IMG/VR virus record: IMGVR_UViG_3300021404_000012
Location: 1-61,874 of that record
DNA from: a virus
Taxonomy: Duplodnaviria; Caudoviricetes
DNA: 61,874 bases
Strand: one strand, 5' to 3'
Under the pieces are notes generated by a model. It ran no database searches, was not told the origin of the DNA, and saw only the letters and a list, made by a program, of their open reading frames with translations. A program made the translations under genes and the position numbers. Positions within the stretch are counted from its first letter, which is position 1, and the number at the start of each line of letters is the position of its first letter. Below are positions 1-61,692 of this stretch, piece by piece.

Positions 1-126
1 CGCTTGTCTGGGGGATCGTCCCACCACAAGCGGGCGATCTCGTAGTTATCGCGTGCGCCCTCGAAGGGGTTCTCGATCCGGTCGATCACCCCGGCGTGTC
101 CGCGCCAGGGTGAGTGATCTCCGGTA
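1..126. repeat. Terminal direct repeat/assembly overlap, identical to 61744-61869
   Basis: Bases 1-126 match 61744-61869 exactly and are followed by a 2-nt indel; indicates a circular or terminally redundant complete genome. Confidence 0.95.
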
Positions 127-1970: not shown

Positions 1971-2279
1971 CTACACACTCCTGTTGCCCACTACCGTAGT
2001 GATCCATTGTTCCAGTTCCACTATCCGGTCGTAGCTGTTGATGACGAAGACGCGTGCGCCGCTCTGTTCAATCTCGCTTATTGTCATTTCCTGCATCGGG
2101 GTTGGCTTGCCACCAATCCGTTTCGCTTCGATCGCAAAGCCAAGTCCACAGCAGAAACCTATATAATCCAATGTCCTGCGTCCGTACCCTCCCGGCACCG
2201 GCATATAGGCGTACACATGCGGGCGGTAACGATCCAGCACCGCCTTGATCCCGCGCTTGATCTTCGTCTCTGGGGTCAT
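1971..2279 (-). CDS. VRR-NUC domain nuclease (putative Holliday junction resolvase)
   Basis: TPETKIK...LDYI...AIEAK..GGKPTPMQ PD-(D/E)XK VRR-NUC pattern. Confidence 0.85.
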   Translation of the reverse strand: MTPETKIKRGIKAVLDRYRPHVYAYMPVPGGYGRRTLDYIGFCCGLGFAIEAKRIGGKPTPMQEMTISEIEQSGARVFVINSYDRIVELEQWITTVVGNRSV

Positions 2280-4353: not shown

Positions 4354-4592
4354 TGGTTCACCCTCCGCTCGGCATCGTCTGCCTCCACGTCAGAAATGTA
4401 GATGGCGACAATTTCGGTAAGTCCGCGTGGTGATATGCCTAACTTCCACGAGTGTAGGTGGTAGCCCTCCTTCGCGAAGGCGTTCAGGTCAGCCTCGAAA
4501 TCAACGGTGCAATTGCCCATAATTTCTTCGGTGTAACGGCGAACAACCAGCATAACTCCCCTCCCTTCACGCATTAACTCGTCGCTCCGCAT
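4350..4592 (-). CDS. Hypothetical protein
   Basis: ORF in operon orientation. Confidence 0.5.
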   Translation of the reverse strand: MRSDELMREGRGVMLVVRRYTEEIMGNCTVDFEADLNAFAKEGYHLHSWKLGISPRGLTEIVAIYISDVEADDAERRVNQ

Positions 4593-6474
4593 CGAGCAAC
4601 GTCACACCCCAGCCGCCTTCGCTGGCGAGCGGCAGGTCGGGCGCCCAGGTAGGCGGGGTGCGGAACTGCCAGTCCAGCTCGGCGTCGATGTCCTCCGCTT
4701 CACTAACAGGGACACAATAGTCCAGGCTGTCGTGGGTACTGAGGAAGGGTCGATGCCCGGTGAGCTGGTACACCCGCACCATGATGTCGGTGACGATGAT
4801 GCGCGACAGCGCCTGTGACACATTCTCCGTCACCTTCGCGCCGTACACCCGCTGCGCCCCGCCGTAGGGGTCGTTGTAACAGGGCTCCAAGTCACCCGCC
4901 GGGTTCTCAAAATAACGCATCTCCGGGTAGGCGATCTTGAGCCCGTTCGGCAGTACGATGCTGTCGAAGTCGGCCTTGATCGGCAACCGGTCGAGCACCG
5001 CGTAAGCGGACGAGCGGGCGCGTACACCACGCAACGAACGCTGCCCGATGATCTCGCCGATCAGGTAGCCCAACGCGTTCCACAGGTCGGGGATTTCGAC
5101 AAAGGTAGTGCGGTAGTGGTTGACGATCCGCTTGGCCTCGTCGTCGCTCGCCCGATAGCTGATACCACCGTTGCCGATAAACAGCATGTGGCGGAACCGA
5201 TACGCGCCGCAGCCGTAACCAAGCCCCAGGATCGCCGTCTTCCCGACAAACCTTTCCTTGATGTGCTGGTGCCGGTCCACCACGTAGCCATAAACAAGCG
5301 AAGCAAACTCCGAATACACGTCGCGCCCTTGATTAAAGGCGATGAGTAAAGGTAAACAATATGCCATCCACGCCGTCATGCGCGCCTCGATCTGGCTCGC
5401 GTCGCGATGCACGATGCGCCATCCCGGCGGAGCCAGAATGGCCTCGCGGATGCGTGAGCCCCGCTTGAAGTTCTGCCAGTTCGTCCCGTCATCCCCCGAC
5501 AGGCGGTGCGTCCTCGCGCCTGAATACTTCAGGGGCACCGGCGCCCAGCCCATGCCCTGCATCGGCCAGGAGGTGTTGGCTAATCTCAGCAACGCCCTGG
5601 TTCGGGTTTCCTCGATCGTCGATTTGACGGCGAGCCGCGCTGCCAGCAAGGCTTGCACATAGATAGGCTGGCTCTCGTCGGCGCAGAGTTCCTTAAAGGC
5701 CCAGTCATTTTTTGCAATTGCTGGAATTTCCTCACCGGTCGCCGGCGATATCTTCATCGGCACATCGACGCCGGCATCTTCCAGCAGCGCAGCGAATTTT
5801 TTATTGGACGAGAATACAGCTTTATCAAGCTGTTCCACCTCGGCCATAACCGCCGCCTTCTCGGTCTGCACCTCGTCGAGATGCTCGGCCAGGAGCTGAT
5901 CGTCGAGCTGGACTTGGGGTAATATCCCCATGCGGAGTACGAGGTCGATGATCTGCAGCTCGTGCGCGGTGAAGCACGGGCGCAGCCGCTGGAAAATGTC
6001 GTGGCAATTCTCGTTATCGCGTTCGCAGTACGAGCGGTACGCGCTCAGCTCGGCGGGGGTGAAATCGGCGAGCCGTTTTCCTATGGCCCGCGTGACTTCA
6101 TCGCCCTTGGGCGGCAGCCCGATGTAGTCGGAAACCGCTCGGAGAGAACTCTTGCCGATCCGCCAGTGCGTCGTCGCCCGCGCCATCGACAATGTGTCGA
6201 GATAGAGTTTCGGCACGTAGCCGAAGCGCCACGCGAGGATCGCGCCGTCGAACCGGGTGTGGTGCGAGACCCATGCGACACGCGCCCAGTCGAGTTGACT
6301 GAGCGCGTGCGCGATGGCGTCGTACCCGACATGGGTCACAGTCGGCTGGTTGCCGACCTTAAGGGCCAGCATTATCGCCTCGAACCTAGGGTCGAGGATA
6401 TACTCAGCCTCGGACATTTTTGAGAGGCTGTAGTCCCGATCGTAGTAAGTTTCCCAATCCCCGGTGATGATCAT
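4567..6474 (-). CDS. polA: Family A DNA polymerase with 3'-5' exonuclease domain
   Basis: GDWET ExoI, HHTRFD ExoII, YCERD ExoIII; motif A DASQIEAR, motif B RFVGKTAILGLGYG, motif C THDS. Confidence 0.92.
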   Translation of the reverse strand: MIITGDWETYYDRDYSLSKMSEAEYILDPRFEAIMLALKVGNQPTVTHVGYDAIAHALSQLDWARVAWVSHHTRFDGAILAWRFGYVPKLYLDTLSMARATTHWRIGKSSLRAVSDYIGLPPKGDEVTRAIGKRLADFTPAELSAYRSYCERDNENCHDIFQRLRPCFTAHELQIIDLVLRMGILPQVQLDDQLLAEHLDEVQTEKAAVMAEVEQLDKAVFSSNKKFAALLEDAGVDVPMKISPATGEEIPAIAKNDWAFKELCADESQPIYVQALLAARLAVKSTIEETRTRALLRLANTSWPMQGMGWAPVPLKYSGARTHRLSGDDGTNWQNFKRGSRIREAILAPPGWRIVHRDASQIEARMTAWMAYCLPLLIAFNQGRDVYSEFASLVYGYVVDRHQHIKERFVGKTAILGLGYGCGAYRFRHMLFIGNGGISYRASDDEAKRIVNHYRTTFVEIPDLWNALGYLIGEIIGQRSLRGVRARSSAYAVLDRLPIKADFDSIVLPNGLKIAYPEMRYFENPAGDLEPCYNDPYGGAQRVYGAKVTENVSQALSRIIVTDIMVRVYQLTGHRPFLSTHDSLDYCVPVSEAEDIDAELDWQFRTPPTWAPDLPLASEGGWGVTLLDAERRVNA

Positions 6475-6479
6475 TAGAC

Positions 6480-6516
6480 GCGCCCTCGATTGGGGTTCTC
6501 GCATTGGAAAGGGCTC
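6480..6516 (-). ncRNA. Single TIGR-like guide unit
   Basis: GAGCCC-tttccaat-GCGAGAACCCC-aatcgagg-GCGC in the intergenic gap before polA. Confidence 0.85.
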
Positions 6517-6522
6517 ATCACA

Positions 6523-7242
6523 TTATGATCCTTCTACTTTCGGGGTCAACTTCCAATCTTCAATCGTGCACTGGACCGGTGCCTTATCGACGACGATGCC
6601 GTGCATCTGCGCCCCGGTGAACAGCGCAGAGATCACTTCCATCTTTTCCTCGTTATCGACAAACCAGTCATACGCGCCGCCGCTGCTCGGCCAGTCGAAC
6701 GCGTTGGTATTCCGGGGCAGGTGGCGCACCCGCTCGGCCCACGGGTTGCCCATCTCCTGCGCGACCACCGTCATCCCCGGCCAGCGCTTGATCAGCGAGG
6801 CGAGGGTGCCGCCATGACAGCGGGATAAAAATTCATCGATGATCCTCTTGGCGACGCGCATCTGGCGCGCATACTCAAGCGCCGGGTCGAGCCACGCGTG
6901 GAACGCCTCCCGCTTATCGGCGGTCAGCGCGGCGAGGTTGAACCGCCGGGTCCCGCCGGCGAAGTAAGGATACTTCAAATCCCTCGACACGATCTTCAGC
7001 GTGACCATCGCCTCGGGGGTGACCACTTGCACGTCCAAGGAGTTGGCCTCGTGATGGTACACCTTTGCCTCCTTGACCATGCGCCACGCCTCCTGCAGCT
7101 CACGCGGCCACACGCAGTCGAACGCCTCCTGCGCCGTCAGCGGAAAGTCGAGCAGCCGCAGCGCGAGCGTGCTGTCGATCAGGTCGTTGGCTTTTCTCTT
7201 GAACTGCCGCAGGGGTTCAGGATTGGTCTTATAGTTTGGCAT
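6523..7242 (-). CDS. Hypothetical protein
   Basis: ORF with GGAGTGTGA RBS. Confidence 0.7.
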   Translation of the reverse strand: MPNYKTNPEPLRQFKRKANDLIDSTLALRLLDFPLTAQEAFDCVWPRELQEAWRMVKEAKVYHHEANSLDVQVVTPEAMVTLKIVSRDLKYPYFAGGTRRFNLAALTADKREAFHAWLDPALEYARQMRVAKRIIDEFLSRCHGGTLASLIKRWPGMTVVAQEMGNPWAERVRHLPRNTNAFDWPSSGGAYDWFVDNEEKMEVISALFTGAQMHGIVVDKAPVQCTIEDWKLTPKVEGS

Positions 7243-7519
7243 CTTCACACTCCGTCTGTTCGCCCCGGTGAACCGTCAGTGGCACCGACATGCGATGATG
7301 TTCAAAGGAAACTTGGTAGTAGCCGGTCATGCCGTCTGTCGTCATCCCGACCACTTCAACACTGGTCTCGCCTCCCCAGTTTATTTTTGATAACTCGATC
7401 GCGAACGCCTCCGCTGCCTCCTTCATCCACTGCTTCACCACTACGGTAGTGGTTTGGTCGTTGGTGAAGCGCCAGTACGGCGCTTCACTTGGGTCGTAGA
7501 TGCCGGGGTCCAGGGTCAT
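7229..7519 (-). CDS. Hypothetical protein
   Basis: ORF in operon, ATGA coupling. Confidence 0.55.
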   Translation of the reverse strand: MTLDPGIYDPSEAPYWRFTNDQTTTVVVKQWMKEAAEAFAIELSKINWGGETSVEVVGMTTDGMTGYYQVSFEHHRMSVPLTVHRGEQTECEDAKL

Positions 7520-7707
7520 GCGTCACCTACTTCGTCGACGCTCACCACATCAGGCGGGCCGTTAGTCATAAGAAACCGCCACCCCGTAAAGTCGATTTGC
7601 GCAGCTTTTTCCAGCGCTATGCGCTCAGCATCATCGCTGTTCTCAGCCTCGACGTAGATCGTGGCTTCCTCGCTGAGGAGCTGCGTCAGCCCTACCTTGA
7701 ACTTCAT
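7516..7707 (-). CDS. Hypothetical protein
   Basis: MKFKVGLT... coupled to the vWA gene stop. Confidence 0.6.
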   Translation of the reverse strand: MKFKVGLTQLLSEEATIYVEAENSDDAERIALEKAAQIDFTGWRFLMTNGPPDVVSVDEVGDA

Positions 7708-9098
7708 ACCGTGATCCTCACGGTGTCGCCCCACGGACCCTTGATCTCCGTGGTCGCGCACCAGATGACTGGGTACTTGGGCTCTTGCGGCCAGCTACTG
7801 GGCATCATGTCCGTGAGGTACACGAGGGTATCAGGAATAATATTTCTTTCAGACAACCACTCGAACGCCGGCTGGAACTCCGTGCCGCCGCCACCGGGCG
7901 AACCCTCCTGGCGGATATGCGACAGCTCGTCGAGGCTGCGCGCCTCGTCCACCCGCTGCACCTTGGCGTCGCACCACATGAGCATGACCCTTTTGGGCTT
8001 ACAATCATTCAGCACGCCGCCCACCTCGGCAAAGCACGCGGCGAGTTCCTTCTCACTAACCGAGCCGGAATTGTCCACGACGCACACCACCAGCTCGGCG
8101 CCGTAGCCGCGCCGCCCCGGCATATAGACCATCGGGTTTAAAACTATCCTCCTTCTGTTCGGGTGGTCCCAGGTTTCCCGCCGGTTGCCGACTTTACCGG
8201 TTAGAACTATTCTAATGTGTTCACGCCAGTTAACTTGCGGCTGGAGGATTTCGTCGATCATCCGCTTGATGTTCGCCGGCAGCTTGCCCGCCCGCTTCGC
8301 CGCCTGCTCGGCACGGGCGATGGCCTCCCGAAACTCGACCTCGTGCGGCACGTCGTCTACCCCCTGCCCATCGCGCTCGGGCGGCAGCACCTCGTCAAAG
8401 CGCCCGTTGTTCGCCTGGGCCTGCTTGTCGCGGTCGCCGCCCTTCTTGCCGGTCGCCTCGCCGTAGGTGTTCGGCCTAGGCAATTGCTGTTGCTGACCAT
8501 GTTGCTGACCACTGGCACTACCGGTAGTCGGCTGGCCTTCCTCATCGCTTTCCTCGTCACCCTGTCCACCTTGCGGCGGGCAATTCGGCTGCGGGATCGT
8601 CGGCACCGGCGGGGGAGGCGGCGGTGGGGGAAGTTTCTTGTAGAGCTTGACGTAGACATCCTCGGCCAGCTCGCTGGCCTTGATGTCGGGGTCGTACAGC
8701 CACGCGGGATTGCACGTCCCGATCTTGCTGGCCACGAGGTCGGCGTTGATCACGTAGTCCGCCGCCGTGTTGAACAGGTCCTGCATGAAAGGCAGCCCCT
8801 TCAGCTCGCCGGCCTGAAGGTAGTAGCGCATCCGTATCGGGTGCTTGTAGATGACGTGATACACCTCGTGCGCCAGGGCAAAGCACCGCTCCGTGGGCTT
8901 GAGCGTGGCGAAGTAGGCCGGGTTCACGAAGATGCGCTTGGCGTCCGTCGCGAGCGTCTTGATGGCGCGTGTCGGCCACATCTCCATCTTGTCGTAAAAG
9001 TAATACGAGAAGAACGGAGCGTAGATCACAAAGGAAGCCATGGCTTCCTCCATGATCCGCTGATCGGTGCTGTTGAGGGTTACTTTCGGCGGTAACAT
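7704..9098 (-). CDS. Metallopeptidase plus vWA domain protein (DUF2201-like)
   Basis: HEVYH zincin motif, Pro/Gln/acidic linker, VVDNSGSV MIDAS motif, GGGTEF, YLTD. Confidence 0.88.
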   Translation of the reverse strand: MLPPKVTLNSTDQRIMEEAMASFVIYAPFFSYYFYDKMEMWPTRAIKTLATDAKRIFVNPAYFATLKPTERCFALAHEVYHVIYKHPIRMRYYLQAGELKGLPFMQDLFNTAADYVINADLVASKIGTCNPAWLYDPDIKASELAEDVYVKLYKKLPPPPPPPPVPTIPQPNCPPQGGQGDEESDEEGQPTTGSASGQQHGQQQQLPRPNTYGEATGKKGGDRDKQAQANNGRFDEVLPPERDGQGVDDVPHEVEFREAIARAEQAAKRAGKLPANIKRMIDEILQPQVNWREHIRIVLTGKVGNRRETWDHPNRRRIVLNPMVYMPGRRGYGAELVVCVVDNSGSVSEKELAACFAEVGGVLNDCKPKRVMLMWCDAKVQRVDEARSLDELSHIRQEGSPGGGGTEFQPAFEWLSERNIIPDTLVYLTDMMPSSWPQEPKYPVIWCATTEIKGPWGDTVRITV

Positions 9099-10514: not shown

Positions 10515-11723
10515 TTAACTTCTCGCGGCACGAAGAATGTCCTTGTTGTCGACCAGCCACTGCTGGACCTCACGCAGGGGCATCAGCGCCTTGGCACGAC
10601 GGATGTGCGCCATCGTCTGCTCGGTGTCCTTGTCCTCGTGACCGCCCAGCATCACGTCGAACGCGATACGCTGCATCTCGGTGCTGAAGCGCAGCACATA
10701 GCGGGTGATGGCTTGGGCTGTATCTTCAGTAACTTGGTCTGCCAACATGTACGAGCACACCATCTGCGCGTCCTTACCCGCCGGCACCTTCGCAGAACGG
10801 GGGTTCTGGAAGATGTCTTCCAACGCCGGTATCTCGTTGGCAAAGCGCATGTGGGTGAAGAACTGCCCTTGGGCGTGCTTGCCGATCCAGCCCTGGCAGA
10901 TTTCCGCCGCCATCAGGGTCATCGGCAGCTTGTCGTTGGCGATGTCCTGCTCGGTCATCATCACCCGCAGGTCCGCGTCCATCTTGCACAGCGTGCGTGC
11001 GGTGCAGAACGGCTCGGGCTTGTCGGGGACTTCCCTTGGAAAAACAATATCGGGTTGCCTCGCAATGAACGCCCTGGTCAGGATGTGCGGGCGATCGTCG
11101 TCGGGCAGGTCCTCAAGGTGACGTAACAAACAACCCGGATCACCCTCGATCTCCATCAAGCCGTGACGGTTGATGATGTGCATCAGCTCGCGGTTGGTAC
11201 CCGACCGGTCGCTGGTCCGGTTCTTGGCACCGACCACCCGCCATGCAGGAGGGAGAAAATGCGTGCCGACGTTGCCGTCGAGGATCAGCGGCGCCGCCGC
11301 CTTGCGCACGTCCTCGTCCGCCTGACCCCACTCGTCGAGAAAAACCACCCCCACTTCAGGAACCTCACCGTCCCAAGTGCCGGGAGGGTAAACCTCCCCG
11401 TCGGGGGTGAAGACCCAGATGTTGTCAACGTCCGGCATCCACGGGGGTAAAGAAAAAACAGTTCTTGGAACCCCGCCCTTGTCGTCCTTGATGGGGATCA
11501 TAAAACCCCGGATGTCGGGGGTCGTCAGGTTGGCGATCATCTCGATGACTAAACCGACTGGGCAAGCCAGTCGTTTAGCGAGACGAGCGCACATTTGTTC
11601 TATACTCTTGCTCTTGCCGACACCGGGTCCCGACTGCAGCATGTACCCGTTGGCACGGGTGCCCCTGCGGATCGCGTCGATATGGGTGTCGATGAGATGC
11701 GCTCTTGCTTGTTCGATATTCAT
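10515..11723 (-). CDS. MoxR-like AAA+ ATPase
   Basis: SGPGVGKS Walker A, VVFLDEW Walker B, sensor N (GAKNR), TARTL. Confidence 0.88.
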   Translation of the reverse strand: MNIEQARAHLIDTHIDAIRRGTRANGYMLQSGPGVGKSKSIEQMCARLAKRLACPVGLVIEMIANLTTPDIRGFMIPIKDDKGGVPRTVFSLPPWMPDVDNIWVFTPDGEVYPPGTWDGEVPEVGVVFLDEWGQADEDVRKAAAPLILDGNVGTHFLPPAWRVVGAKNRTSDRSGTNRELMHIINRHGLMEIEGDPGCLLRHLEDLPDDDRPHILTRAFIARQPDIVFPREVPDKPEPFCTARTLCKMDADLRVMMTEQDIANDKLPMTLMAAEICQGWIGKHAQGQFFTHMRFANEIPALEDIFQNPRSAKVPAGKDAQMVCSYMLADQVTEDTAQAITRYVLRFSTEMQRIAFDVMLGGHEDKDTEQTMAHIRRAKALMPLREVQQWLVDNKDILRAARS

Positions 11724-11786
11724 CGTAGTCACACTCTCCACTACCGGTAGTCACCAGGGACAATCCCTGGTAACGCCCTGTGTATA

Positions 11787-11815
11787 ATAGTACAATCCTC
11801 ATAGTTTCAGGTCAA
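11787..11815 (-). promoter_or_regulatory. Sigma70-type promoter for the AAA/vWA/replication operon, overlapped by a 21-bp operator
   Basis: TTGACC-N17-TACTAT. Confidence 0.75.
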
Positions 11816-11882: not shown

Positions 11883-11919
11883 CTGTCACCGACACTACTG
11901 GTAGTGGTGCCGGTGACAG
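11883..11919 (-). terminator. Hairpin closing the 3' end of the main guide array
   Basis: CTGTCACCG...CGGTGACAG stem enclosing a CACTACTGGTAGTG motif. Confidence 0.6.
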
Positions 11920-12385
11920 CTCGCGCTCGAGCAAGGGGTTCTCGCTATTCATGGGGCTCGCGCAGATCGTTGGGGTTCTCGCCAACTGCTGGGCTCGCGC
12001 CTCATCAAGGGTTTTCCGCTAGGTAAAGGGCTCGCGCCGGGGTAAGGGGTTCTCGCCTAACGTTGGGCTCGCGCTTGATCAAGGGTTCTCGCAAGGCACC
12101 AGGCTCGCGCTCATCGTAGGGGTCATCGCAATAAAGGGGGCTCGCGCAAATCGTGGGGGTTGTCGCTTATGACCGGGCTCGCGCTTAGGGCTGGGTTTCT
12201 CGCTCAAGATTGGGCTCGCGCCCACGTTTGGGTTCTCGCTACTCGTAGGGCTCGCGCAATTTCAAGGGTTTGTCGCTCCAGATTGGGCTCACGCTCCTGC
12301 TAGGGGTTCTCGCTGATGGTTGGGGCTCGCGCCGCTCGAAGGGGTTATCGCAACTATTAAGGCTCGCGCCTACTTTCGGGTTGTC
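11919..12385 (-). ncRNA. Main TIGR-like dual-repeat guide array (12 units plus a partial unit) downstream of the Tas-like gene
   Basis: 36-37-nt period, two alternating repeats, 8-nt unique spacers. Confidence 0.93.
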
Positions 12386-12484
12386 TTGATCGCGCGATGC
12401 GACAGCCAAGCCCATTGGTAAATTTCACACGGACACGCAAATGGATGCCGCCTCCATGATGCTCGCATCCTTATTCTCCTGGGC

Positions 12485-13372
12485 TTATGCAGGGATCGGG
12501 GGTGGGATGTAGTCGACGTGGTGCAAATGACCGATGGGGTACGGCACCGGCGACGCTTGCCCGGTGCGGATCAGCCACACTTCGTTCATGTGAGACAAAA
12601 ATAACTTCACCGCCCAGCGTCGTGCCCTCGCGTCTATCTGCGAGGGTGGCAGCCGGCCCTCGGCGTAATGCTTATAAGTGGGTGTATCCTTGGCAAAACG
12701 AGGCAGCCACTCCTTCGCGGTCTCGACCCGTTTGCCGGTATCGGACATCATCTGTTCAAAGGCTTTTCGCTCGCGGTATTTTCTTCCGTAGAAGCAATCT
12801 TCACGGTTCGAGAGTTTCATAAACGACTGCCCCGCGTGCCAGCATATGGTCTTGAGCTGCACGTTGAAGGGGCGCACCTGGCCCGCCTTCCACGGTTTCT
12901 GGTCGGCTGCGGCCCACCCGACGAATGAATTGATATGACCAGCCGTGGGTCTGGGCACCTCCAGATGCGCGAGAATGCCCGCGCTGATCACCGGCCCGAT
13001 CCCGACGATCTGCCGCATCCAACTACCCATTATATGGGCAGTTGTATAGGTATCCAGGGCGCGCTTGATCTGGCTCTCTAAAATTCTCGACTGATTAAAA
13101 AGCCAGTCGATTAGGACGTGGGGTTCTGGCGTTGTCAGAACTTCACCAGCATCTTCCTCGACCACGACGCCCCTCGCCATCGCGCGGATTTGGTTCGCCG
13201 CGCGCTTGCGGTTTTCCTGCGATGTGTAATACGCATCGACCAAAAATCTGGCTTCTTTTGGACCCATCGTGCGGGCGGCGTTGGCTAAATCTCTGGTTAA
13301 CCTGATGACAGACGGCGCGTGCTCGATGATTTCCTCGTCATCGACATAGGTCGCATAGGCTGGCGATGCCAT
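12485..13372 (-). CDS. Nop-domain/IS110-related RNA-guided DNA-binding protein (TasA-like, no RuvC or HNH)
   Basis: Coiled-coil region then GIGPVISAGILAHL (IS110 Transposase_20-like HhH), PFNVQLKT, YGRKYRERK, IDARARRWAVKLFLSH; no N-terminal DEDD RuvC; flanked on both sides by dual-spacer arrays. Confidence 0.8.
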   Translation of the reverse strand: MASPAYATYVDDEEIIEHAPSVIRLTRDLANAARTMGPKEARFLVDAYYTSQENRKRAANQIRAMARGVVVEEDAGEVLTTPEPHVLIDWLFNQSRILESQIKRALDTYTTAHIMGSWMRQIVGIGPVISAGILAHLEVPRPTAGHINSFVGWAAADQKPWKAGQVRPFNVQLKTICWHAGQSFMKLSNREDCFYGRKYRERKAFEQMMSDTGKRVETAKEWLPRFAKDTPTYKHYAEGRLPPSQIDARARRWAVKLFLSHMNEVWLIRTGQASPVPYPIGHLHHVDYIPPPIPA

Positions 13373-13405
13373 GTTGTTCCCTCCCACTTAACTACGGTAG
13401 TGGGA

Positions 13406-13470: not shown

Positions 13471-13765
13471 GCGCTGTACAAAGGGGTCATCGCGCGTTGT
13501 AGGGCTCGCGCCCGACGGAGGGTTCTCGCGGTGATACGGGCTCGCGCCAGTCATCGGGGTTATCGCGGAGGATTGGGCTCGCGCTCGTAGTCGGGGTCAT
13601 CGCTTCTTGAGGGGCTCGCGCCGCTTGTCGGGGTTATCGCTCATGTGCGGGCTCGCGCTCGTTGCAGGGGTTGTCGCATATAGCTGGGCTCGCGCTCACC
13701 TTAAGGGTTCTCGTCGTCAACTGGGCTCGCGCACCAGAAAGGGGTTATCGCTTGCTTCAAGGCTC
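13471..13765 (-). ncRNA. TIGR-like guide array (8 units) upstream of the Tas-like gene
   Basis: Same alternating repeats and 8-nt spacers. Confidence 0.92.
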
Positions 13766-15491: not shown

Positions 15492-15545
15492 TCTAATCCT
15501 CCACTACGGTAGTGGAGCGGCGGTTATCCCGCCGCTCCATTGGGT

Positions 15546-17359: not shown

Positions 17360-17423
17360 CACTCACTCCACTACGGTAGTGGCGGTGAATAGTACCATCG
17401 TACTTTCACCGAACAAATCGTGG

Positions 17424-17603: not shown

Positions 17604-17688
17604 CTCGACCAACTCCAAAAAATAAATCGCCGACCACTACCGTAGTGGCGGTCCGTTCTCGGTACACGCAACCTGCGAGTAACGAGAT

Positions 17689-19532: not shown

Positions 19533-19873
19533 GATTGCGAACTCACACTTTGGTTGTCGGGACGATGTTGTCCCATCAATGGCGAAGCTGATTTGAACTA
19601 CCGGTAGTGCCACCTTCACCGTCACAAAGTGACGGTGCGGACCTGGCCCTTGTGCATGATGCGTGCGTCATTATGCGTGCATCCCGTGCGCGTCACGAGG
19701 CTTCGGCCAGCCCCCGGCCCCGGTCTGTCCATGGCCCCCGGCCTGGCTCCCGCCGCCACCTGCAGCGCCTAGACGAGAGTGACCCAAAAAGTGAAGTTAA
19801 CTTTTATTAACGCCACTTCACCACTACGGTAGTGCGGTACGTCGCACCGGCAGCCCTAGGAACTGCCGGTGCC

Positions 19874-20201
19874 GCGCGTCACTCTGGGTTTCACGCCTAA
19901 AAAAGGGCTCGCGCCATCTGTTGGGTTCAATCGCACATCCTTGGGCTCGCGCCGCATCAAGGGTTTTCCGCTCACCTAAGGGCTTACGCTACTTGCCGGG
20001 TTTTCCGCTTTCCATTTGGTTCGCGCGTTTCTTCGGGGTTCTCGCACAAGGTCGGGCTCGCGCTGCCTGTCGGGTTCTCGCTCAGGACTGGGCTAAATCG
20101 AACCGCCGGCGCCGCCGGCGGCTCACACGCAGAGTGTCGGGGTTTTCGCCTGTAACTGGGTTCGCGCAATACATAGGGTTCAACGCGTGTCCTGAGGGCT
20201 C
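19874..20201 (-). ncRNA. TIGR-like guide array (6+2 units, split by a GC hairpin at 20103-20121)
   Basis: Alternating repeats (loop variants GCGGAAAACCC, GCGATTGAACCC) with 8-nt spacers; 3' hairpin at 19843-19872. Confidence 0.85.
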
Positions 20202-22257: not shown

Positions 22258-22294
22258 GAGCCCGGCCAGGGGCGAGAACCCCACCGCATAGCGC
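22258..22294 (+). ncRNA. Single TIGR-like guide unit
   Basis: GAGCCC-ggccaggg-GCGAGAACCCC-accgcata-GCGC followed by a terminator. Confidence 0.85.
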
Positions 22295-24883: not shown

Positions 24884-24902
24884 TGTCTACCAGTCCCCGC
24901 CC

Positions 24903-24944
24903 GCGCATGGGACAGGGTTTTCACGCGGGTTCGTGGGCTCGCGC
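24903..24944 (-). ncRNA. Single TIGR-like guide unit between terS and terL
   Basis: GCGCGAGCCC-acgaaccc-GCGTGAAAACCC-tgtcccat-GCGC. Confidence 0.8.
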
Positions 24945-24954
24945 CAATCTAGCA

Positions 24955-25521
24955 TCATACTTCGACATCCTCAAACTCGGCGTCGTCCTCGTCGGGACGC
25001 AGCGAGATCGACTGCCGGGGCGGCGGGATTTCATCGGCTTCCACTACGGTAGTGGCGCGGTAATCCTTGCGGCCCCCGGCGAAGTTGATGGTCAGGTTGA
25101 ACGCGGCGCCGAGGGACTTTTGCTGCGCGTCCTTGGCGCCGGCGGGCGCCCCATCCACGCCGGCTCCCCTCTGGAATTGCTTAAAACCGTCGATCCGCTG
25201 CGCGATCGGTGTCCTCGGGTCGTTGATCAGCGCCGTCATCGGGATGATTAATTGTTCAGTGGCGTGCATGAACTTGTTGCGTATCCGCACCTCGGTTGCT
25301 TCGTCGCTCAAGTAGAGCGCCCGCAGTTTGCGCGCCTCGTAGACAATAACCGGGTGCAGCCGCAGGTATTCCTTGAGCGCATCCTTGCCGTCGAGCCCGT
25401 AGCGGTGGGCGATCGTCTCGGCGTCGTGCATCCCCATCGCGAGGTCGTACTGCAGCCGCAGTATCAGCGCGTCTTCCTGCGCCGGGTTCGGGTCGTAGAT
25501 CGAAGGATAAGGGCTGCTCAT
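24955..25521 (-). CDS. Probable terminase small subunit
   Basis: Immediately upstream of terL; N-terminal HTH-like region, FNLTINF strand, acidic tail. Confidence 0.65.
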   Translation of the reverse strand: MSSPYPSIYDPNPAQEDALILRLQYDLAMGMHDAETIAHRYGLDGKDALKEYLRLHPVIVYEARKLRALYLSDEATEVRIRNKFMHATEQLIIPMTALINDPRTPIAQRIDGFKQFQRGAGVDGAPAGAKDAQQKSLGAAFNLTINFAGGRKDYRATTVVEADEIPPPRQSISLRPDEDDAEFEDVEV

Positions 25522-28765: not shown

Positions 28766-29785
28766 ATGGCCGACGAAGACACCTCTCACCTCCCTGAACA
28801 GGTTCGTCGTCAGATCGAGCGGGCGAACGAACTATCGCGCGAGTTGGCGACGGAGCCCGGTGAGGGTGACCAGCCGACGGCGGAGGCGCTGCTGCAGGAT
28901 GGCACTACGGTAGTGGAGCCGAGGTCTGAGCCTCGCTCGGAGCCACTACCGGTAGTCGACCCCTCGGCGGCGCCTCCTGTCGCCGGAGAATGGGAGCAGC
29001 GTTACCGCACACTTCAGGGCAAGTATGACAGCGAAATACCGCAGCTACGTGCTCAGGTCCAAGGGCTGGAACGCCTTATCGCAACGCTCCAGGCGGCGCC
29101 GTCACCGGCGTCACCGGCGGGGCCGCTGCAGTACGACGAGAGTGACGTTGACGTTTACGGACAGGACTTCCTCGATGCCGCCGCACGCGCGGCTGCCGCA
29201 CGCTACGAGCCGGTGATCGCCGAGTTGCAGGCGAAGCTTAATCGCCTCGAAGGCGGGCAGACAAACCTCAACGCGCAGTCGCTGGAAAACCAGATGTTCG
29301 GGGCGCTGGACAAGGACCCCGAGCTGATCGGCTGGCGCGAACTCAATCAGGACCAGCGGTTCATTCAGTGGCTGCAGGGTCTCGACGAGTACGCTGGCAT
29401 ACCGCGCAACGATATGCTCCAGCACGCCTACCGCAACGGAGACGCCATGCGTGTCGGTAGGTTTTTCAAGCGTTACATGGCGGAGCATACCGTACCACGC
29501 CCTGCTACGACGGCACCCCAGACTGGCTACCCTGCCCGCCCGAACGGAAACGGACAGATGGTTTCAGCGGGTGGCGCACGCCTAGAGGACATGGTGGTTC
29601 CGGGTCGGGCTGCAGGTCCCGGCGGATCAGGAAACGGCGCTCAAAATTCCCGTATCTGGTCACGAGCCGAAATCACACGCTTCTACCGTGATCGCACTGC
29701 TGGGAAGTTTAGGGGCCGTGAGGATGAAGCCACACGCCTTGAAGCCGACCTTTTTGCTGCGGAGCGGGAAGGGCGTATCCACTAG
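28766..29785 (+). CDS. Probable scaffolding protein
   Basis: Precedes the capsid gene; coiled-coil WEQRYRTLQGKYDSE; ends AEREGRIH. Confidence 0.75.
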   Translation: MADEDTSHLPEQVRRQIERANELSRELATEPGEGDQPTAEALLQDGTTVVEPRSEPRSEPLPVVDPSAAPPVAGEWEQRYRTLQGKYDSEIPQLRAQVQGLERLIATLQAAPSPASPAGPLQYDESDVDVYGQDFLDAAARAAAARYEPVIAELQAKLNRLEGGQTNLNAQSLENQMFGALDKDPELIGWRELNQDQRFIQWLQGLDEYAGIPRNDMLQHAYRNGDAMRVGRFFKRYMAEHTVPRPATTAPQTGYPARPNGNGQMVSAGGARLEDMVVPGRAAGPGGSGNGAQNSRIWSRAEITRFYRDRTAGKFRGREDEATRLEADLFAAEREGRIH

Positions 29786-29798
29786 GAGGGTACGTTAA

Positions 29799-30752
29799 AT
29801 GGCTATTTCACAGGGCACCCCGTATGCGGGTTCTGCCGCCAACCCCGCTTATTCGGGGGCGCCGGCAGGTGGTGTGTTCGTTCCTGAAATCTGGAGCGGC
29901 AAACTGATTGAAAAATTCTACGCCGCGACCGTGCTCGCTGCCATCAGCAACACGGATTACGAGGGCGAGATCAAGAACATGGGCGATAAGGTGAAAATCC
30001 GCACCAAGCCCACGATCCAAATCCGTGACTACCAGCTCGATCAGCAGCTCACCGTGGACCGCCCTTCGGGCTCGACGGTGGAACTGACGATCGATTACGC
30101 CAAATACTTCAATCTGGTGCTGGACGACATCATGGAGCGCCAGAGCGACATGAACCTCATGTCGATGTGGGCCGATGATGCCTCGGAGCAGATGAAGATC
30201 GTCATCGACACAGCGGTGCTGGCAGCTATTCCCGCCGGCATCGACGCCAAGAACAAGGGTGCGACGGCGGGGAACAAGTCGGGCAACATCAACCTTGGTG
30301 TCCTCGGTACGCCAGTTATCCCCACCAAGGACAATATCATCGACCACATCGTCGATATGGGTCAGTGCCTTGATGAATATAATATTCCAGAAACGGGGCG
30401 CTGGCTGGTCATTCCGCCGTGGATCGGCTCGATGATCAAGAAGTCGGACCTGCGTGATGCGTCGATTTCCGGCGATGGTGTTTCCCTCGCCAGGAACGGG
30501 CGCCTCGGCATGATCGATAGGTTTACGCTGTATAGCTCGAACCTCCTGTCAACGGTGACCGACGGCACCCACCAGGCGACGAACGTCCTCGCCGGCCACA
30601 ATGCGGGGTTCACCTTCGCCTCGCAGATCAGCCAGATGGAGACGCTGCGGTCGGAGAGCACCTTCGGCACGCTGCTCCGTGGGCTTCAGGTGTACGGTTA
30701 CAAAGTGATCGATGGCACTACGCTGGTCGACCTCTACGTGGCTCCGACGTAA
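29799..30752 (+). CDS. Major capsid protein
   Basis: FVPEIWSGKL, NTDYEGEIKNMGDKVKI, GRLGMIDRFTLYSSN, RGLQVYGYKV; strong RBS. Confidence 0.9.
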   Translation: MAISQGTPYAGSAANPAYSGAPAGGVFVPEIWSGKLIEKFYAATVLAAISNTDYEGEIKNMGDKVKIRTKPTIQIRDYQLDQQLTVDRPSGSTVELTIDYAKYFNLVLDDIMERQSDMNLMSMWADDASEQMKIVIDTAVLAAIPAGIDAKNKGATAGNKSGNINLGVLGTPVIPTKDNIIDHIVDMGQCLDEYNIPETGRWLVIPPWIGSMIKKSDLRDASISGDGVSLARNGRLGMIDRFTLYSSNLLSTVTDGTHQATNVLAGHNAGFTFASQISQMETLRSESTFGTLLRGLQVYGYKVIDGTTLVDLYVAPT

Positions 30753-30824
30753 GTCGAAAGTACGACCCTGGTACTTTTGTCACTACGGTAGTGGAGGGGG
30801 GCGACCCCCTCCCAGGAGGCCGGC

Positions 30825-39990: not shown

Positions 39991-40293
39991 ATGGCCGAGT
40001 ACAGCGACGTTCCCGAAATTAACTCGCTCTATGAGGAGCGGGAGAACCTCACCAACGGTATCGCCTATGTCGATGGCGGCGGCAGCATGACGTATTTCAC
40101 CATCGAAGCGGAACCGCCAGCGGAGGGCGTGGTCCTGACGATGCCGCAGGTGCCGGTCCGCGTCGTGATGCAGCCGCCGACGCCGCAAGCAACGCTCGAC
40201 AATATCCGGGCGTGGATGGTGCAGCGGCAGGCCGATATCGACAGTCAGTTGTCATTGCTTGGGGTTACCAATACCCCGGCAGCACTACGGTAG
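39991..40293 (+). CDS. Hypothetical protein, paralog of the previous ORF
   Basis: YSDVPEINSL...GGSM...LSLLGVT. Confidence 0.65.
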   Translation: MAEYSDVPEINSLYEERENLTNGIAYVDGGGSMTYFTIEAEPPAEGVVLTMPQVPVRVVMQPPTPQATLDNIRAWMVQRQADIDSQLSLLGVTNTPAALR

Positions 40294-40302
40294 TGGCGAC
40301 CG

Positions 40303-46426: not shown

Positions 46427-49400
46427 ATGGCTGCCGCTTACGACGACGACGAAGACGATGAAGACGATTTTGAGGAGACTACGGCGCAGAGCAGCGACGA
46501 GACTGATCCCGGTTCGCTTAGGTCCGCGCTGCAACCGGCACAGCCCCAGTACAGCCCCCAAACCGAGCCCACGGCTGAACCCGAGCCGACGCCTGAACCG
46601 ATAGCGCCGACGCCGGGTGCGGCTCCTGCATCGGAACCGGCGCCGGCGGCGGCTCAACCGGCAGCGCAACCGCCGCTGCAACTGCCCAAAGGGTGGACCG
46701 CCGATCCCGACGCCCAGCCGGTTTACATCAATCAGCAGCCGGCGGAGGAACCGGCACCCGAGGCCGGTTACCTATCTTCGGCGTGGGGTGGCTTACTCAA
46801 GGGCGGCGCGCAGGAGGTCGAGAAACTCGCCAACCTCACCGCGACGGGGATGCGCAAAGTCGGTAGCTGGACCGATCAGGACTGGGCCAAGAGCGGGGCC
46901 GACTGGCTCGACCAATCGACAAAGGGCTTGTCCGAAGCCGCTGCTAAAAATGCTCCAGTCGGTGACCTGTCAGTCAAGGATGCTTGGGACAAGGGTGTCA
47001 TCGGGCCTTGGATCACCGAGAAGGCTGCCGAGGGCGTCCTGCCATTGGCGGAACTCCTGGCGCTTGGGCGGTTCACAGGCCCGTGGGGGCCGATCGCCTA
47101 CGGCGCGGCGGTGGGCGCGGATCGGGAAGGGCGCCGCCCCGGCTCGACCCCTGAGAGTATAGGCGCGGCAGCGGCTGAAGGCGGGGTTATGTTCGCCGCG
47201 CCGCTTGGCCTGCAGAAGACCACTGAAAATCTCGGTCTCTTTAAGCGCGTCATCGCTAATGTTCTGGGGATGGGCGGGCTTGGCGCGGCTGGCGAGTACA
47301 CCGCGCCCGTACCCGAGGCGGTCGCCACCGGCACCTACAAGGCACCGACAGGCGAGCAGGTCGCGACGGGTGCGGCTACGGGCGCAGTTCAAGGCGCACC
47401 GCTCGCGGCGATGGGCGGACGCCGCGCACCGGAGACCCCGGCGGCGAATGAAGACCCGGCGGTCAAAGCCGCGACCGATGCAGCAGTAAATCCCCAGACC
47501 GTGCCAAATGACCAGGCCGTGCCACCCAATACGCGACCGGTGCCGCCTGGTGCTCCGCCAGGTGTCGATCAGCCGATGACCCCTACGGGGATGCCAAGAG
47601 TTACAGTTCCGACAGATACTGCGCCGCCGGTCGACACCAACCCGCTGCGCGCACGGCAGCAGGGGCTTGGGCAGGGCTACCAGACAACCCCGTCGGACTT
47701 CGCTGCCGGGGGTGCGACGACGACCCCGGCGCCGGATGCAACGGGTCGGGTACGCGGGCTGGGTCCGGCGACGCCGGGTATCGATCCGGCGGCAGAGGCG
47801 GCGCTCGCCGCGACGATGCCGCAAGGCCAGGAACCGCCGGCTAATACCCGCCCAGCACCGCCGGGTCCGCCGGCTGGTGTCGATCAGCCGATGACGCCGC
47901 CGGGGATGCCGCGTGTCGCGCCAACCGAACCCGCCGCGCCGCCCGCAAACCCGCTGCGCGCACGCCAGGAGGGGCTGGCGCAGGGGCCGACGACGCCAGC
48001 GAATTTTGCCGCCGAGGGGACGATCCCGCCGACGCCGCCCGACGTGAACGCGCCGGTGCCGCGTGTGCGCGGGCTTGGCCCGACACCGCCACCGGTGGAA
48101 GCGGCAGATCAGGCGCCGCCTAACGAGCGCCCGGTGCCGCCGGGTGCGCCCCCCGGTGTCAATGAGCCGATGGCACCGGGTGGGATGCCGCGCGTGACGC
48201 CACCCGAACCGGCTGCGCCAACGGAGCCCGTCAATCCCCTGCGCGAGCGGCAGCGGTTCCCCGAGCAGCCGACGACGCCGGCAGACTTCGAGACCGAGCG
48301 GCGCATCCCGACCGCGCCCAGCCCCGAGGAGTTGGAGCCGCCGGGAGGTCGCACGATCCGTCGCTACACAACGGAGCCCGACCACGAAAACCCAGACCAG
48401 CATGTGGCGAAGGACGAGGCTGGCAACGTCGTCGCGCTGGGTAGTACGCCCGAGATAGCGGTCGAGATGGCGCGAGCGCGGGAAGCAGCGGAGGCGCGCG
48501 AGGCTGCTACTGCTCCCACTACCGTAGTGGAGCCGGCGGCTGCACCGGCTGAACCAGCCCCGGTGGCACCGGCTGAACCAAAGGCATCGGCCAAAGCCAG
48601 GGCTAAGGGCGCAAAGATCACCCCCGCCGCTGCCGAGGTGCTCGACAAGGCGGAGGCTAAGCAGGCCGCGCCGGCGCCAGCACCAAAGGCCGCGACCGGC
48701 GAGGCGAAGGCAAAGCCTGCCCTCGTGGAGCTTGTCAGGAAAAGCCTGGGCGTCGGGAAGTCCAAGCCGGTCGAGACCACGGCGCAGACCACGCAGCGTG
48801 GCGAGACGCCCGCCGAACGTAGCGCGCGGATTGCTCGCGAGGTGAGAGCCGATGAGCGCGAGGCCAAACGTATGCCCGCAACGGCGACACCGGCGACGCG
48901 CGGTCTGGAGGATGTCGGCGGGCGTACCGCAGAGGAACAGGTCGAGCGCGTGCCGACAAGGACGCGTGAAGTGCAGACAGTTGCCGAGGCCGAGGGCCGC
49001 GAGACCAGCGAGCTGAAGTCCGATCAGCGCGCTGCCTCGACAACGAGCCTCGCGCTCAAGGCAAGCGATCTGCTGCACGACCATCTGGAAGGCCGGCTCA
49101 AAGACCCGATGGATATTTACGACCGTTACGGTGAGCCGAACGAAGGACGCGGGGCGCCGCGCAAATACGACACCTTCCTCGACTGGCTGAAGGACCGCAT
49201 CAAGACCGCCAAAAACCCCAAGGCGATGGAGGCGATCAACCGCGAAGCGGAGGAACTGAGGACCGACAAGACACTGACACCGGGTCAGCGCAACACGTTG
49301 ATCAAGCGACTGGCTGACCGGCTGCTTACGGAACGCGGCGCGCTCGACAAGATGAAGGCGATGCAGAAGGCGATCGAGATCGGGCTGAAAGAGCGGGCGA

Positions 49401-53863: not shown

Positions 53864-53965
53864 CCCTACCTCGGGCGAGAACCCCTAAAGAAGCGCGAGC
53901 CCTGTTGGCAGCGCGAACCCAGCTACAGGCGCGAGCCCCGGAGGAGGTGCCAACCCCCGTAACAA
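53861..53965 (+). ncRNA. TIGR-like guide array (about 3 units) at the end of the virion operon
   Basis: AGCCC-N8-GCGAGAACCC-N8-GCGCGAGCCC-N8-GCGCGAACCC-N8-GCGCGAGCCC. Confidence 0.8.
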
Positions 53966-61269: not shown

Positions 61270-61311
61270 GGGGGAGCCTCATGTTTGAAAGTATGAGACT
61301 GTTACTTTCAC

Positions 61312-61692
61312 CTATGCGGAGCGGACGCGCAAGACCGTTGCCTGGGAAATCTTCACACCGGGGATCGGTTTTTTGGTTTCTTCGAGCACTTCTAAACTGG
61401 CGTTCTTCGCGACGCGAGCTTCGAGCAAATCCCACAACTCATGCTCGCGGATAAAGTCCAGCGTCCGTTCCCAGTTCTCGACCGTGACGCTGGTGCTGGT
61501 TTGCTTAAAGGCCGTGCCGGCGGGGCCGTTCACGCTGTCGAGCTTGGTCGCGTGCAGGTGCCGCATCAGCTCGGTTTCCAGTTGCTGCATCATGTTGATG
61601 TAGGGCTCCAGCTCCTTGACGTGCTTGCCCTTAATCTCCGCCGATTTATTGCGCAGCTTGATGTACTTCTCGATCATGTCCGCTGGCGTCAT
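61312..61692 (-). CDS. Conserved hypothetical replication-module protein
   Basis: MTPADMIEKYIKLR...W...LLEARV...IPGV. Confidence 0.7.
   Translation of the reverse strand: MTPADMIEKYIKLRNKSAEIKGKHVKELEPYINMMQQLETELMRHLHATKLDSVNGPAGTAFKQTSTSVTVENWERTLDFIREHELWDLLEARVAKNASLEVLEETKKPIPGVKISQATVLRVRSA

Follow-up and report, generated by a model that had tools for sequence, protein, structure and literature searches.

Our analysis identified a solitary guide unit of a dual-repeat TIGR system within the replication genes of a tailed-phage-like virus and connected its guide with the end of the adjacent gene. The virus (Duplodnaviria; Caudoviricetes) is IMG/VR record IMGVR_UViG_3300021404_000012, a single contig of 61,874 bases, all of which was analyzed (the window). 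The unit, one 37-nucleotide (nt) tigRNA gene, lies at 6480-6516 on the minus strand between a gene for a 239-amino-acid (239-aa) protein and a family-A DNA polymerase gene. Together, its two spacers specify a 16-mer that resembles the 3' end of the 239-aa gene and differs from it only at synonymous positions, and guides at the ends of arrays in other genomes mirror their neighboring genes more often than mispaired guides do. We tentatively propose that the guide is directed against an allele that the phage itself does not carry.

Read in the direction of the flanking genes, the unit comprises a 5' half edge, GAGCCC (6511-6516); spacer A, TTTCCAAT (6503-6510); an exact copy of the loop repeat, GCGAGAACCC (6493-6502); an extra C (6492); spacer B, AATCGAGG (6484-6491); and a 3' half edge, GCGC (6480-6483), after which follow gtcta and the polymerase ATG at 6476. 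Its repeats are the same as those of the five TIGR arrays in the window, its half edges stand at array spacing, and it takes up most of the 46 nt that separate the 239-aa gene's stop codon from the polymerase ATG. The pattern of a mature tigRNA (half edge, 8 nt, loop repeat, 8 or 9 nt, half edge) is found 11 times in the window, nine times within arrays and once each at 6480-6516 and 22258-22294, compared with a mean of 0.00 and a maximum of 0 in 100 dinucleotide-preserving shuffles. This upholds the original prediction, made from the letters of the DNA, that a genuine single guide is present at this position. The mature tigRNAs described in the TIGR papers are about 36 nt long and are cut in the middle of the edge repeat; the 6480 unit would give 37 nt. 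Judged by every sequence feature tested except its truncated edges, the unit is a member of the dual-repeat TIGR family.

Joined as spacer A plus the reverse complement (rc) of spacer B, the guide reads TTTCCAATCCTCGATT, the reverse complement of which is a-ATC-GAG-GAT-TGG-AAA. The coding strand of the 239-aa gene from 6565 to 6550 reads g-ATT-GAA-GAT-TGG-AAG. This site (near-target 1; 6550-6565, minus strand), 33 nt from the unit, thus agrees with B+rc(A) at 12 of 16 positions. All four mismatches, at 6550, 6559, 6562, and 6565, are at the third position of a codon and keep the encoded residue (T, I, E, and K), so the earlier observation that guide and gene spell the same IEDWK peptide is confirmed. 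The corresponding guide positions are 1 in spacer A and 1, 4, and 7 in spacer B. A second local match to the same 16-mer, absent from the original prediction, was found at polymerase codons 4 to 9 (near-target 2, TGDWE; 6451-6466, minus strand), again 12/16, with non-synonymous mismatches. Genome-wide, the 16-mer has four matches at up to four mismatches, and two of them are these sites flanking the unit; the other joining geometry has three, none of which is local.

A 12/16 match somewhere in 62 kb is ordinary for any 16-mer, as the best self-match has four mismatches for 15 of the 26 guides in the window. Unlike this mere similarity, the location and codon phase of the match at 6550-6565 are unusual. 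Within flanks of 120 nt on each side of the unit, at least one match was obtained with 16 of 676 recombined pairs of window spacers and with 252 of 20,000 random 16-mers of spacer composition; two flank matches were obtained with 0/676 and 3/20,000, and matches with all mismatches at third positions with 0/676 and 4/20,000, respectively. A synonymous-only flank match appeared in neither set (0/676 and 0/20,000), and the comparison with shuffled spacer pairs that had been proposed alongside the original prediction therefore leaves it standing.

The joining rule assumed there, A+rc(B), agrees with the strand numbering used in the TasH structure paper (PMC13421893). In the passage concerned, the 5'-most base of spacer A is the pairing partner of target strand A position 1, and the strand continues from the flanking duplex (positions 17-23) to positions 16-14. 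This numbering implies 5'-B+rc(A) as the reading of one strand and 5'-A+rc(B) as that of the other. The geometry rc(B)+A is ruled out by the same passage and by the flank-match data.

These data come from a repeat-pair scan, which detected the repeats of the window at 7 loci in IMG/VR and 40 in metagenomes. The parsed set comprised 45 records, 62 arrays, and 372 units (373 with the 6480 unit added); left out before counting were L032, L042, and L048, which are duplicate contigs of G002 and G001, units with spacers other than 8 to 9 nt, and chains in which near-exact repeats numbered fewer than two. Outside a unit's array but no more than 300 nt from it, the 372 units had six matches with at most three mismatches, whereas 300 mispaired shuffles gave a mean of 1.04 and a maximum of 4. 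All six lay on the unit's own side and within three units of the array end, for which the shuffles gave a mean of 0.46 and a maximum of 3. At up to four mismatches over the same distance, there were 29 flank matches for the 373 units and 12.0 in the shuffles. Synonymous flank matches in an open frame numbered 5 versus 0.067 expected (4 of 60 shuffles had one, and none had more). With the wrong geometry, rc(B)+A, we counted 9 flank matches versus 10.7 in shuffles and 0 synonymous ones versus 0.1. A flank match common to L040, L045, L051, and L060 represents one event counted four times; the shuffles are equally redundant. Since one spacer is inverted relative to the other, the array-end matches do not stem from plain duplication but follow the targeting geometry of Tas.

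The first unit of L031 provides the best independent replicate; its guide (AAA CAG GCT ATT GCA) matches the KQAIA codons ending the upstream gene (AAG CAG GCT ATC GCC), 24 nt away, at 13/16, with three silent mismatches. The third unit of G001 matches the MNEIWL codons of its own tas gene at 13/16 and the MNEVWL allele present in the window and in G005 at 14/16. In the window, the unit at 11923-11959 is a 14/16 match to the start of the next gene (G-ATG-AAT-ATC-GAA-CAA; 11709-11724), one mismatch preceding the ATG and one being silent, and the last unit of the array starting at 19868 is a 14/16 match to a non-coding site 77 nt downstream (19776-19791). A further flank match, at 511-526, was discounted because it is non-synonymous. 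Over the whole window, 3 of 66 coding matches of its guides were synonymous, compared with 9 of 1,798 for mispaired guides. Self-targeting at up to two mismatches showed a weak excess in the window (3/26 guides versus 3/130 mispaired) and no excess genome-wide in the seven other records tested.

The Tas protein of this phage (295 aa; 12485-13372, minus strand) is encoded between two arrays, 6 kb from the 6480 unit. It is a Nop-type protein that matches PHROG 4285 (E 2.6e-29) and PDB 9mty_A (E 9.3e-07), a 331-residue chain deposited as an IS110-type C-terminal-domain protein, and thus shows the relationship between the Nop domain and the RNA-binding domain of IS110. The latter alignment includes the C-terminal H-DYI-PP motif. 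In the phage protein, this motif reads H..DYIPPP and aligns with HVDYIKPP of 9mty_A, and H285 is invariant and Y288 nearly invariant among 13 homologues. A C-terminal Tyr/His loop of this kind is described as having a processing role in dual-repeat systems (Xu 2026, 10.64898/2026.09.09.750476). An AlphaFold model built from the 13 homologues reached a mean pLDDT of 60, and for this low-confidence model, the top five Foldseek matches were TasH-tigRNA-DNA complexes (9w04, 21kl, and 9vzx; probability, 1.00; TM score, 0.38 to 0.54). Only 97 residues, predicted to be helical, precede the Nop match; the model, at this pLDDT, is all-helical without strands, and no conserved His/Asn/Cys pattern was found among the 13 sequences. 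A tblastn search with Tas against 50,697 phage records gave no match. The protein is probably TasA-like, as far as so weak a model allows. No nuclease domain was seen, and "targeting" would therefore mean binding.

On these grounds, we consider it quite possible, if short of probable, that the 6480 guide is aimed at a non-resident allele of the 239-aa gene in co-infecting relatives and serves heterotypic superinfection exclusion. In this scenario, a minus-strand transcript would cover the unit, the 239-aa gene, the polymerase gene, and a small gene (7229-7426), and the apparently nuclease-less Tas encoded by the phage itself would bind the unit and process it into a 37-nt tigRNA. The two spacers, in the tandem geometry, would pair with opposite DNA strands and specify a 16-bp site that spells the conserved C-terminal motif T-I-E-D-W-K in partly different, synonymous codons. 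A Tas dimer on this site in a rival, just before the rival polymerase gene, may then block transcription or replication, while the resident copy would be spared by its four synonymous mismatches, two of which (positions 4 and 7) lie in the pairing region of spacer B. The gene end preceding the polymerase is a good site for stopping expression of a rival polymerase. If Tas indeed has no nuclease, any effect must come from binding, and a nuclease-less TasA guided to DNA has been described to repress transcription (Xu 2026 preprint). For TasH, one mismatch at spacer position 5 is enough to prevent cleavage of the strand concerned, and a mismatch at position 1 is tolerated (PMC13421893); given this sensitivity, four mismatches plausibly protect the resident site. 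The restriction of the differences to silent positions argues that guide and gene site share descent and diverged under protein-coding constraint. Either the guide came from a diverged allele or the resident gene changed later; the guide keeps all ten non-silent positions.

Several observations weigh against this interpretation. The original prediction held that the guide fits the homologous allele of a relative; the allele-like synonymous relation and its recurrence elsewhere speak for this, but we found no guide-perfect allele of the 239-aa gene in relatives. The exact 16-mer is present at 34 IMG/VR loci, by our own estimate about the chance count for a collection of this size, and all 34 lie in unrelated genes, none of them homologous to 6523-7242. 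A word-indexed search of 5.8 billion non-redundant proteins with the 239-aa protein listed the protein itself (P0001) and a sole close homologue, P0002. This protein, encoded on a contig of 61.9 kb, is 78% identical and reads QCTVEDWK, and the V in place of I limits the guide match of its gene, known from the protein only, to 15/16 at best. Near-target 2 in the polymerase gene is left unexplained by superinfection exclusion, and the edges of the unit are truncated to GAGCCC and GCGC(G), with no full edge repeat. Full edge repeats were needed for the processing of minimal arrays in Escherichia coli; natural TIGR arrays usually start and finish with truncated edges (Faure 2025, PMC12045711).

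The other loci add to these reservations. The L031 guide 16-mer occurs in 100 IMG/VR stretches and, among 80 fetched loci, in the homologous KQAIAIA gene of 31; that guide-perfect alleles exist in other viral contigs for this replicate speaks in favor of the interpretation. The carriers of this guide-version allele, however, are phages with a low G+C content (mean, 0.40, versus 0.60 for L031), and the resident version is as common or commoner in that gene family (59 of the 80 fetched loci), so that the existence of an allele is no proof of its being the target. For two further flank-mirroring guides, no perfect allele was found in IMG/VR homologues (9 and 32 loci). The first unit of L007 has a 13/16 match with three silent mismatches in an open reading frame (ORF) on the opposite strand (7014-7029), which lies beside a loop-like motif and is ambiguous, and a match at 333-348 in G005 was discounted, being synonymous only outside the tas frame. 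None of the four other solitary units has a flank match at up to four mismatches. Cross-targeting among eight records amounted to 16 matches at up to two mismatches, about the number estimated from sequence length. The idea that guides are aimed at tas genes was rejected (2 distinct guides versus 1 to 3 in shuffles).

The 239-aa gene (6523-7242, minus strand) belongs to no Pfam or PHROG family. A HMMER search with its protein reached 52 distant representatives, and among 13 aligned family sequences, the Trp of near-target 1 is invariant and TIEDWK is confined to the resident protein. No homologue of the 239-aa protein or of P0002 was found in IMG/VR or JGI metagenomes, tblastn with the 239-aa protein against the 50,697 phage records gave no match, and none of five IMG/VR records with the same repeats carries a homologue of the gene. 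The closest relative, L030, has a 77% identical tas gene and the same palindrome context (described below), and its contig stops inside the 239-aa homologue, before the IEDWK site. The sequencing runs listed include none of RNA. Contigs of four soil runs, at 80% likeness or more, cover parts of 5500-8000 but not 6424-6591. Two soil metagenome runs, which come from two studies, have contigs with fragments of 5500-8000 at 90 to 99% identity, which indicates that close strains are present in soil; none spans the unit. The last 14 or so codons of the 239-aa gene (6523-6570) end mostly in A or T, compared with a third-position G+C content (GC3) of 0.83 for the whole gene, and its tail after LTP differs from that of P0002.

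The lack of an external perfect target, both among exact 16-mers in IMG/VR and among homologues matching the two further guides, would be expected had the guide been captured in cis, an alternative that we regard as unlikely but not far-fetched. Here, TIGR adaptation would have copied the unit from its own flank, a Tas roadblock before the polymerase gene would have made the self-target harmful, and the gene would have escaped through silent changes, leaving the guide as a relic without an external target. The targets lie 24 to 193 nt from their units and always on the unit's nearest side, the mismatches are at silent positions only, as expected if the gene alone could change, and of the 13 aligned family members, only the resident lineage has TIEDWK. 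What fits less well is that, within the 16 nt, differences occupy four of the six silent positions, beyond what escape requires, and that the guide is unchanged at the ten non-silent positions, which suggests that it is young or kept by selection. Moreover, the discussions of Faure 2025 and Xu 2026 know of no adaptation machinery for TIGR.

The position of the unit directly before the polymerase gene (4567-6476, minus strand; its ATG at 6476 is inferred from the ribosome binding site) raises the possibility, in our view improbable, that the unit regulates this gene in cis or via partial pairing. The ribosome binding site, GAGG, is part of spacer B, stands 9 nt before the ATG, and is the only Shine-Dalgarno-like motif there. 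Trimming by Tas would cut the operon mRNA 5 nt before the ATG and remove this site; in addition or alternatively, the tigRNA may direct Tas weakly to both 12/16 sites. The polymerase start is bracketed by two of the four matches found genome-wide at up to four mismatches, as occurred for only 3 of 20,000 random words, and other window guides match promoter-like sites (17398-17413 and 11795-11810) at 13 to 15 of 16 positions. TasA works as a repressor (Xu 2026), and TaTasR acted on a natural site that paired at 9/9 plus 6/9 positions (Faure 2025, PMC12045711). This alternative, however, gives no account of the all-synonymous mismatches at 6550-6565, and a 12/16 site mismatched at spacer B positions 3-4 may not be bound at all. 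The proportion of non-coding matches is only weakly raised (6 of 14 matches from 27 window guides versus 60 of 220 from 702 mispaired guides), and the predicted RNA fold of 6455-6580 is unremarkable (z score, -1.31).

We judge it just as improbable that an ordinary guide with its real target elsewhere, in the host or in an unrelated element, resembles the neighboring gene by chance. The finding was selected out of a very large scan, a best self-match at four mismatches is common among window guides, 12 of the 29 flank matches at up to four mismatches are to be expected by chance, and short spacers yield many false matches (Xu 2026). Chance does not readily account for the local controls without a single synonymous case, for four further synonymous flank matches at independent loci where 0.067 were expected, or for the window-wide excess of synonymous coding matches. 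More doubtful still is the wider notion that TIGR units are RNA-guided homing or allelic-exclusion elements whose array-end and lone guides aim at the unit-less or foreign allele of the adjacent gene; Tas binding would stall the replication or transcription of a rival, and recombination with the carrier would spread the unit together with its silent "immune" flank.

The contig has the appearance of a tailed-phage genome, with minus-strand early genes up to about 25 kb (SNF2-type helicase, exonuclease, family-A DNA polymerase, ATPase, and large terminase) and long late genes on the plus strand; gene calls in the window are rough, based on ORFs and GC3 and partly corrected by hand. No Rfam family and no tRNA gene was found in it. 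Tandem Repeats Finder reported arrays with a period of 36 to 37 bases, in which the 10-nt repeats GCGCGAGCCC (edge) and GCGAGAACCC (loop), in gene-strand reading, alternate with 8 to 9 variable bases between them, the layout described for dual-repeat TIGR (Faure 2025, PMC12045711). Both repeats start with GCG and end with CCC, a covariation of box D-like and box C-like ends whose TasR counterpart is UG...CCA (Faure 2025). The five arrays, each co-directional with its neighboring genes, are located at 191-398 (12 repeats), 11917-12387 (26 repeats; last unit, 11923-11959), 13484-13751 (15 repeats, upstream of tas), and 19868-20081 (12 repeats), all on the minus strand, and at 53875-53956 (a short plus-strand array, running in the direction of the late genes).

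Outside the arrays, the second solitary unit, at 22258-22294 (plus strand), has no flank match at up to five mismatches, and further isolated or degenerate repeats are present at 20140-20167 and 24897-24944; the spacer agttacag at 20140-20167 resembles agctacag of the 53875 array. Three arrays (at 232-268, about 13686-13722, and about 19965-20000) share the half-spacer TTAGGTGA or a close variant of it, once as spacer A and twice as spacer B. Inside the cut-off first gene, 57-90 (plus strand) contains a stretch like the 6480 unit, with GCGC, 8 nt, and the loop repeat with one mismatch; the stretch agrees with the loop-plus-spacer-B part of that unit at about 19 of 21 bases. Elsewhere, in a single relative, G004 (L018), a minus-strand ORF with an HNH-like motif (..DHI..N..VLC..CN..) at 1762-2163 adjoins both TIGR arrays.

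A palindrome, CACTAC[C/G]GTAGTG, is strongly over-represented in the window (29 strand matches at up to three mismatches versus 4.0 expected). Its sites are 178-192, 1988-2002, 7438-7452, 13389-13403, 15501-15515, 17368-17382, 17634-17648, 19821-19835, 25041-25055, 28902-28916, 30780-30794, 40282-40296, 48516-48530, and 57307-57321. It often stands directly 5' of GGAG and a start codon, yet it is present inside late genes too, and it also occurs in the relatives L030 (four sites) and L053 (one site). In an unrelated metagenome contig, L047, a mini-array of 1.5 units (2144-2207, minus strand) has a guide whose tandem target is the palindrome plus three flanking bases, a 15/16 match to window positions 28900-28915 and 57305-57320. 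The idea that many guides are aimed at the palindrome was rejected, as one guide of 372 (that of L047) matches it at up to two mismatches. Guide 232-268 matches 17398-17413, just 5' of a TACTAT box and the palindrome, at 15/16 and two similar sites (30750-30765 and 61300-61315) at 13/16; guide 269-304 matches 11795-11810, between TTGACC and TACTAT upstream of the gene at 10515-11723, at 13/16. By their sequence context, these promoter-like matches suggest possible self-regulation of promoters.

Several known systems invite comparison. Phage homing endonuclease genes are selfish inserts among conserved genes whose site lies in the neighboring gene of insert-less relatives, while the resident site is silently protected. 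The present case differs in that no nuclease domain was seen in Tas and recognition would be by RNA; a homing-like copying of the TIGR unit into a rival is pure conjecture. The degenerate mini-CRISPR CreA and the Cas9-autoregulating long tracrRNA are guides with partial complementarity that regulate rather than cut. Like the 6480 unit, they are solitary, with degenerate repeats and a partial match to an adjacent site, but they pair with promoters of their own or of toxin genes, whereas the 6480 sites are coding ends around the polymerase with codon-phase mismatches. The IS110 bridge RNA, as treated in Faure 2025 (PMC12045711), shares a related Nop-type protein and two-part guides that match element-adjacent DNA; unlike in IS110, no DEDD recombinase domain is present here, the guides stand in arrays, and there is no sign of mobility.

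By analogy, mini-CRISPR arrays carried by viruses form the closest precedent for the 6480 guide. As described in Medvedeva 2019 (PMC6858448), one or two guides present in a virus target genes of close relatives, at sites near the array, and point mutations in the orthologous site of the carrier itself avoid self-targeting. The 6480 guide likewise has an altered and nearby own site (12/16, four silent mismatches, 33 nt). In contrast to the mini-CRISPR arrays, for which perfect targets in co-occurring viruses were found, it has no perfect protospacer in a related virus among those searched, and TIGR is another RNA-guided system with a virus-encoded effector.

The dual-repeat TIGR-Tas systems with TasA described in Faure 2025 (PMC12045711) and Xu 2026 (10.64898/2026.09.09.750476) resemble the present one in their two alternating 10-nt repeats reading GCG...CCC, 8- to 9-nt spacers, 36- to 37-nt unit, Nop-type Tas, phage host, and tandem-spacer geometry. 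Different from what is published there are the lone unit with truncated edges, 6 kb from tas, inside an operon and overlapping a ribosome binding site; the presence of five arrays and solitary units on one contig; and guides with near-targets in their own flanks. We found no report of flank-matching TIGR guides in the literature text consulted, and the supplements (Table S1 and fig. S4 of Faure 2025; the TIGRSafari resource of Xu 2026) may list the locus or its guides. Three features are new: a solitary TIGR unit inside a replication operon, the statistical association of array-end guides with the ends of the genes beside them, and the codon-phase signature of the mismatches.

In conclusion, the observation behind the original prediction has been confirmed and generalized, and its interpretation is partly supported. 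Both Faure 2025 and Xu 2026 state in their text that neither the targets that TIGR spacers have in nature nor the route by which spacers are gained has been determined, and the short spacers are described there as swamping target searches with false matches. A search of each array's own flanks combined with a codon-phase filter gives a signal of 5 versus 0.07 in shuffles and names concrete candidate protospacers. Homing or allelic exclusion, if true, would explain the origin of TIGR spacers as well. If the pattern holds, the role of TIGR-TasA in phages would become directly testable, with inter-phage exclusion, homing, and self-regulation of replication genes as the candidates.

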